A stretch of 64,000 nucleotides of DNA from Escherichia coli (GTDB taxonomy: Bacteria; Pseudomonadota; Gammaproteobacteria; Enterobacterales; Enterobacteriaceae). The translations under genes were made by a program, and so were the position numbers. This document shows positions 5,114-5,275 of this stretch, in pieces; position 1 is the stretch's first letter, and the number at the start of each line of letters is the position of its first letter. Location of the stretch: the NCBI RefSeq assembly GCF_041886205.1, contig NZ_CP169029.1. The stretch is one strand, 5' to 3'. Below the pieces are notes generated by a model that saw nothing but the letters and a program-made list of their open reading frames with translations, had not been told where the DNA came from and did no database searches.

Positions 5114-5275
5114 ATGGATGACAAACCATTGCAGGCTCTGGCTAATGAACTCAAAACACCGGCTCAAGAAAGTCAGCGTAAGGGCTTCTTCCGACTGCAA
5201 CAGGTGAAGAAAAACCAGCCCCATATTATCTATATCCCCGCCAAGCATCAGGGGCCCCTGCCTGACATCGCCTGA
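5114..5275 (+). CDS. Small hypothetical protein, 53 aa (MDDKPLQALANELKTPAQESQRKGFFRLQQVKKNQPHIIYIPAKHQGPLPDIA)
   Basis: Not in the ORF track (<60 aa); found by eye. Strong SD AGAAGG 7 nt upstream of the ATG; lies in the accessory DNA between cvrA and the LRR gene. Confidence 0.3.
   Translation: MDDKPLQALANELKTPAQESQRKGFFRLQQVKKNQPHIIYIPAKHQGPLPDIA

Follow-up and report, generated by a model that had tools for sequence, protein, structure and literature searches.

A 53-codon open reading frame beside cvrA in Escherichia coli as a decayed IS256-family transposase start

Several described systems lie close to the small reading frame analysed here. Type III secretion chaperones, typically ~120-170 aa long, acidic and conserved alongside their effector, offer one model for a small frame next to an effector-like gene. 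IS1414, of the IS256 family, encodes in its full form a transposase of 402 aa that Pfam recognises as Transposase_mut (PF00872; E 1e-119). In E. coli K-12, which lacks the islet described below, the gap between dadX and cvrA holds a 102-bp feature annotated 'IS1414 (partial)' together with ymgM (b4740). The YmgM protein has been detected by chromosomal SPA tagging and immunoblot (VanOrsdel et al. 2018; PMC6001520, Table 1).

We analysed a 64,000-nucleotide stretch of an E. coli chromosome (contig NZ_CP169029.1), hereafter the window. Its gene order is ycgR-emtA-ldcA-cvrA, then an islet of ~3.5 kb, then dadX and dadA. The islet carries a gene encoding a leucine-rich repeat (LRR) protein, and at its cvrA-side edge a first-pass annotation had pointed out a 53-codon open reading frame (ORF) with a strong Shine-Dalgarno (SD) sequence, proposing either a small, chaperone- or regulator-like accessory protein acquired along with the LRR gene or a gene remnant. 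The features discussed are as follows.

3258 to 4994, plus strand: cvrA.
4866 to 5066, minus strand: YmgM homologue of 66 aa, antisense to the 3' end of cvrA (Pfam PF23693, E 2e-45).
5045 to ~5240 (right boundary approximate), plus strand: relic A, an IS256-family, IS1414-like remnant with the tip of the left inverted repeat (IRL), 5' leader and internally deleted transposase start.
5096 to 5332, minus strand: antisense ORF of 78 aa over relic A, with a start and length that vary (42-95 aa).
5101 to 5106, plus strand: SD AGAAGG, 7 nt before the ATG of the 53-codon ORF.
5114 to 5275, plus strand: the 53-codon ORF, with its ATG at 5114 and its TGA ending at 5275.
5192 to 5194, plus strand: codon 27 of this ORF, CGA here and TGA in 477 of 831 carriers.
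5614 to 6536 and 7844 to 8363, plus strand: the LRR gene, split by an IS3-family element at ~6537 to 7843.
8531 to 9601, minus strand: dadX.

Start, stop, length and translation of the ORF all agree with what had been reported, as do the AGAAGG motif and its 7-nt spacing, and the overlap with the antisense ORF is present. The description of the ORF as unannotated stands only in so far as it falls below a 60-aa ORF track; the identical product is a public RefSeq CDS, WP_000342119.1, listed as a 'hypothetical protein' and called in genomes that are 100% identical here (strains 6EVA and LHM10-1). Length is a poor guide to coding: the first 12 kb of the window contain 93 ORFs of at least 40 aa, so a frame of 53 codons is common by chance. 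Neither the 53-aa product nor that of a second allele matched any Pfam or NCBIfam family.

A transposase start downstream of cvrA

The reading that we favour, with a probability of about 0.9, is that the ORF is the decayed front end of an IS256/IS1414-type transposase gene, a pseudogene fragment that is drifting neutrally. A DNA search of plasmids with positions 5030-5620 matched 717 records. With few full-locus exceptions, the matches were confined to window ~5035-5151, at ~76-86% identity, and they overlie the termini of transposase genes whose annotation reads IS256 family or 'IS256-like element IS1414 family'. The references for alignment were a full-length IS1414, in which astA is embedded, and one IS256-family copy.

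Relic A begins 50 bp downstream of the cvrA stop codon and is colinear with the left end of IS1414, at ~84% DNA identity: the inverted-repeat tip GAGCCTGTA... at 5045, the leader CCTGATTTTGATATG, the SD, the ATG and the first codons follow one another in the same order. The pattern GAGCCTGTA...CCTGATTTTGATATG...AGGTTAA.TTATGGA is invariant in the alignment of relic A, IS1414 and the IS256-family copy. The SD lies at the same place in both sequences (AGAAGG in the window, ATGAAGG in IS1414), and the first 13 codons read MDDKPLQALANEL in the window and MDEKQLQALANEL in IS1414. By blastn, the homology falls into two colinear blocks in the same frame, window 5038-5160 against IS1414 nt 11-138 (E 2e-26) and window 5177-5228 against nt 339-390 (E 8e-6). 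BLASTP of the two transposase blocks gave E 3e-5 and 8e-6. Along the plus-strand frame, the ORF is composed as follows.

Codons 1-13: transposase residues 1-13.
Codons 14-21: transposase residues 18-25, after a loss of 4 codons.
Codons ~22-41: transposase residues ~84-103 (RDGTFEPQLVKKNQTRITGM), after an in-frame loss of ~58 codons.
Last ~14 codons: no detectable homology.

The block corresponding to residues 84-103 is plainest in other alleles, where it reads R(N/K)GFFRLQQVK(N/K)NQPRITGI. Beyond it, we found no further IS1414 homology up to the LRR gene, and the right end and right inverted repeat of IS1414 had no match in 4995-5700 of the window or in two longer alleles. Relic A thus retains the marks of family membership at one end, namely the left terminal inverted repeat, the leader and the transposase start, and has neither the right terminal inverted repeat, beside which an 8-9 bp target duplication would be expected, nor a ~400-aa DDE transposase: the Mutator-type DDE domain (PF00872) is missing, and only residues 1-25 and 84-102 of the 402 can be recognised. 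It is the remnant of an IS256-family member and no longer an element. At 84% identity to IS1414, the relic is either old or descended from a diverged member of the family.

In our model, an IS256-family (IS1414-like) element inserted 50 bp past the cvrA stop codon, where the LRR islet borders on cvrA, and later decay removed its catalytic DDE domain and its right end. What survives is the IRL tip, the leader with the transposase SD and ATG, and ~40 recognisable transposase codons, with residues 1-25 minus four joined in frame to residues 84-102. Past the transposase part, the frame stays open by chance for ~14 codons until the TGA. The pairing of SD and ATG is therefore not a coincidence, because it was inherited from the transposase gene; by the same token, it says nothing about a present-day gene. 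A good Shine-Dalgarno sequence with an ATG can be inherited debris. Of the alternatives offered for this ORF by the first-pass annotation, the gene remnant is the one borne out, in the form of an internally deleted and truncated IS256-family transposase relic.

Variation of the reading frame among E. coli genomes

We queried 5426 complete E. coli genomes with window 5100-5227 and found the region in 831, in a single copy in each. Codon 27 is TGA in 477 of these carriers (57%), as counted with a 32-nt query centred on the TGA, which is unable to seed a megablast match on the CGA allele; 354 genomes are without that stop. The aligned set comprised 14 diverse alleles and one E. coli-like contig (a misbinned MAG) from species-representative genomes. 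In it, CGA>TGA at codon 27 occurs in L012, L013, L014, L016, L019 and L021; L013 and L014 carry a 1-nt deletion that shifts the frame in addition, L019 has a 159-bp deletion from codon 33 onward, and the stop is lost (TGA>CGA) in L015, L016 and L018. The SD is weakened to AGAAAG in 2 of the 16 alleles read (L003 and L008). In O157-type genomes, an IS3-family element replaces window 5109 to 8247 and so removes the ORF.

Diversity within the frame was compared with that of cvrA using Nei-Gojobori estimates from the same 15 genomes, a set with few substitutions.

cvrA: piS 0.070, piN 0.0005, piN/piS 0.01.
ORF codons 1-33: piN/piS 0.80.
ORF codons 34-53: piN/piS 0.97.
ORF overall: piN/piS 0.88.

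With 15 alleles and few substitutions, these values would be compatible with weak constraint. The nucleotide diversity of the ORF (0.044-0.071) is close to the piS of cvrA (0.07) and to that of upstream noncoding sequence (pi 0.051), and among the 15 alleles none of the six frames in the region stands out as constrained. A conserved small-protein gene would be expected to keep its frame intact at orthologous loci and to show a dN/dS well below 1. Here the frame is broken by the TGA in 477 of 831 carriers and elsewhere by frameshift, deletion or stop loss, and piN/piS is 0.80-0.97 in the small sample of 15. Stop codons at orthologous positions, which the first-pass annotation had named as speaking against a gene, are thus present in most carriers.

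In a database of 5.8 billion proteins, predicted products resembling the ORF come only from E. coli/Enterobacteriaceae, are 29-86 aa long, and in several cases have frameshifted C-termini. When these proteins are aligned, their N-terminal 33 residues appear conserved. The set is biased, since gene callers omit the 26-aa products of alleles that carry the codon-27 stop, and the apparent conservation is partly an ascertainment effect. PGAP calls the plus-strand ORF in some genomes and an antisense ORF of 50, 78 or 95 aa in others, an inconsistency between strands that is typical of non-genic sequence.

These data bear on the proposal that the ORF is a functional accessory protein, such as a chaperone or regulator, of the LRR type III effector-like gene with which it was acquired. 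The ORF lies on the same strand, 340 nt upstream of the LRR gene, with a usable SD and ATG, and RefSeq lists its product as a hypothetical protein. Its homology, however, is to the start of an IS transposase and to no chaperone or regulator family. The codon-27 stop interrupts it in 57% of carriers, the LRR gene being intact in, for example, L012, L013, L014 and L019, and a piN/piS of about 0.9 gives no sign of selection on a product. With 53 aa and a net basic charge (8 K/R against 5 D/E), and with no conservation alongside the effector, it also has none of the properties of type III chaperones. The first-pass suggestion of such an accessory protein is therefore largely refuted by the nonsense alleles, joined by the frameshift, deletion and stop-loss alleles and a piN/piS of ~0.8-1, and we consider an accessory role extremely unlikely.

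Alternatively, the antisense ORF (5096 to 5332) could be the real gene and the plus-strand ORF its shadow. Its frame is open in 15 of 15 alleles, CGA>TGA is synonymous in it, PGAP calls it in several genomes, and piN/piS is 0.39 over the 114-nt block common to all alleles. Yet piN/piS rises to 0.83 over a 225-nt block, and frames that are closed give values similar to the lower figure (0.38 and 0.48). Start and length vary with indels between 42 and 95 aa, a Pfam search found no match, and the ORF lies wholly on the IS relic and adjacent unconstrained sequence; moreover, at ~5% divergence ~100 codons without a stop are expected by chance. We agree with the earlier judgement that this ORF looks spurious, and leave the antisense gene only a residual chance. 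If the relic reading is right, WP_000342119.1 and its variants, listed as 'hypothetical protein' in hundreds of RefSeq E. coli genomes, sit on a dead IS fragment, as does the antisense ORF, and annotation should treat ORFs of both types as pseudogene or IS relic.

The conservation test was made within E. coli, as close homologues of the LRR protein occur only in E. coli and Shigella. For a wider view, species-representative genomes were scanned with a degenerate 31-nt pattern over the ORF start. The scan found the islet in no named non-E. coli genome, and only two MAG contigs matched. JAIJJM010000586.1 (L021) is a 2-kb contig binned as a Collinsella MAG, 92-94% identical to the islet and carrying the TGA allele; it is probably a binning contaminant of E. 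coli type. DXHP01000074.1 (L022), an Ignatzschineria MAG contig, ends in a different, unrelated IS256-family copy, which has itself undergone an internal deletion in frame. No intact orthologue of the ORF beside LRR homologues in other genera emerged from the protein database, the species-representative scan or the search for LRR homologues, and literature searches on the islet returned nothing on the 53-codon ORF. A few records of the plasmid collection match the whole of 5030-5620: two 4.9-Mb 'plasmids', probably mislabelled chromosomes, and two plasmids of 175-187 kb, which may reflect misassembly or genuine transfer of the locus.

The LRR gene and the sequence upstream of it

The LRR gene is intact in strain 6EVA, where it encodes 478 aa. 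Its close homologues, at 76-98% identity, show unusually high polymorphism. Its LRR part is similar to SspH2/IpaH-type LRRs (28-41%); the protein ends in an acidic repeat region rich in Leu, Asp and Glu, and no NEL ligase domain was detected in it. Besides the IS3-family insertion in the window, the gene has been disrupted independently, at other sites, by IS3 (CE10, O145:H28) and by IS1 (O18ac:H14), and it is deleted in K-12 and O157.

Insertion sequence ends can carry promoters. It could thus be asked whether the relic acts as DNA or RNA, as a promoter, 5' leader or antisense RNA, on the expression of the LRR gene or of cvrA/ymgM. In keeping with this idea, conservation over the ~273 nt before the LRR start exceeds that of the relic, and K-12 ymgM and cvrA have been listed as a pair with convergent, overlapping transcription (PMC12288877). 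The relic itself, however, is as diverse as synonymous sites, and the conserved stretch falls outside the ORF. A promoter/terminator scan of 4900-5700 found no sigma-70-like promoter on the plus strand, and Rfam gave no match over the same interval beyond a meaningless sub-threshold lncRNA. A hairpin after cvrA was no better than shuffled sequence (z -0.21), and we claim no terminator there. Such a role is very unlikely in our estimation.

The spacer between relic and LRR gene has features of its own. At ~5341 to 5613 (~273 nt before the LRR start), pi is 0.019, which is 2.5-4 times below that of the relic and ORF (0.044-0.071) and of cvrA synonymous sites (0.07), and suggests a constrained promoter or 5' leader of the LRR gene. 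Among E. coli alleles the spacer also shows presence/absence polymorphisms of 29 nt at ~5323 and 19 nt at ~5447.

The K-12 locus and comparison with known systems

The K-12 relic is inverted with respect to relic A and shows 93% identity to IS1414 and 87% to relic A. We considered whether it is an inverted copy of relic A and rejected this, as it is closer to IS1414 than to relic A; it represents a second element. The 67-aa K-12 ymgM starts at the transposase ATG of this second relic (MDDKQLQAQA...) and then runs into the antisense strand of the cvrA 3' end. K-12 YmgM scores E 1.6e-51 against PF23693, and in the same search the 53-aa product matched 0 families. In the window, the start codon of the YmgM homologue falls within the inverted-repeat region of relic A. 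PGAP is inconsistent around the ymgM-cvrA overlap: a pseudogene is called in some genomes, and in others an apparently intact cvrA is truncated to a 'pseudogene' and a 48-aa antisense ORF is called.

The junctions of the K-12 gap (fetched K-12 sequence 4189..4290) read cvrA flank-GAGCCTG|CAATTG... on one side; on the other, the final ~70 nt of the LRR gene directly adjoin the IRL tip. What the gap retains is therefore 7 nt of a window-type relic tip (compare 5045 to 5051), the 102 bp from an inverted second copy of IS1414, and this ~70-nt end of the LRR gene (compare window ~8290). We infer a deletion between the GAGCCTG tip of relic A and the same heptamer in an inverted second copy near the 3' end of the LRR gene. 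Since the K-12 gap appears to have arisen from the islet by deletion, the islet is probably no recent gain but an ancestral feature that most E. coli have lost.

Going by K-12 YmgM, the transposase-derived SD and ATG would form a module that is translation-competent in vivo. As the homologous relic start is translated in K-12, the start of the 53-codon ORF may be translated too, and alleles with an intact ORF may well yield its peptide. Any such peptide would be short and unconstrained and would lack a selected function; in view of the population data, its translation would be no sign of a function.

One can go further and regard the peptide as a young, lineage-specific 'proto-gene' that, like YmgM, has acquired a selected role in strains with the intact allele. 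The K-12 gene begins at the homologous relic ATG and its SPA-tagged product was detected, the SD and ATG context is nearly identical, and the genomes that lack the codon-27 stop leave room for a lineage-restricted role. Against this, no signal of constraint is seen, many carriers have the nonsense allele, and some alleles have a weakened SD. The detection of YmgM speaks for translation, not for function, and beyond the first few residues the YmgM body is unrelated to the ORF, which has no Pfam YmgM match. We regard the proto-gene as very unlikely. Equally unlikely, to our mind, is the broader proposal that decayed IS256-family ends at cvrA-dadX are ready-made translation start modules, giving YmgM in K-12 and a 53-aa (or 26-aa) peptide in islet strains that is perhaps functional in some lineages; if true, a transposase start site would have given rise to a small protein de novo.

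Set against known systems, the decayed transposase start resembles type III chaperones and small regulators solely in being a small co-directional ORF upstream of an LRR effector-like gene; it has no sequence relationship to the chaperones and differs from them in size and charge. From IS1414 and other IS256 elements of ~1.3 kb it differs in extent, ~195 bp remaining in relic A. The nearest likeness is to K-12 ymgM, which shares the cvrA-dadX gap, the type of relic, the transposase SD and ATG, and the first residues, MDDK(P/Q)LQA. The YmgM body, however, is antisense-cvrA sequence, unrelated to residues 10-53 of the 53-codon ORF, and its synthesis has been shown experimentally (PMC6001520), whereas the 53-codon ORF is known here from its sequence. 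The start codon of YmgM, a validated K-12 small protein, thus comes from a sister relic at this locus, a small example of mobile-element debris providing translation start sites.
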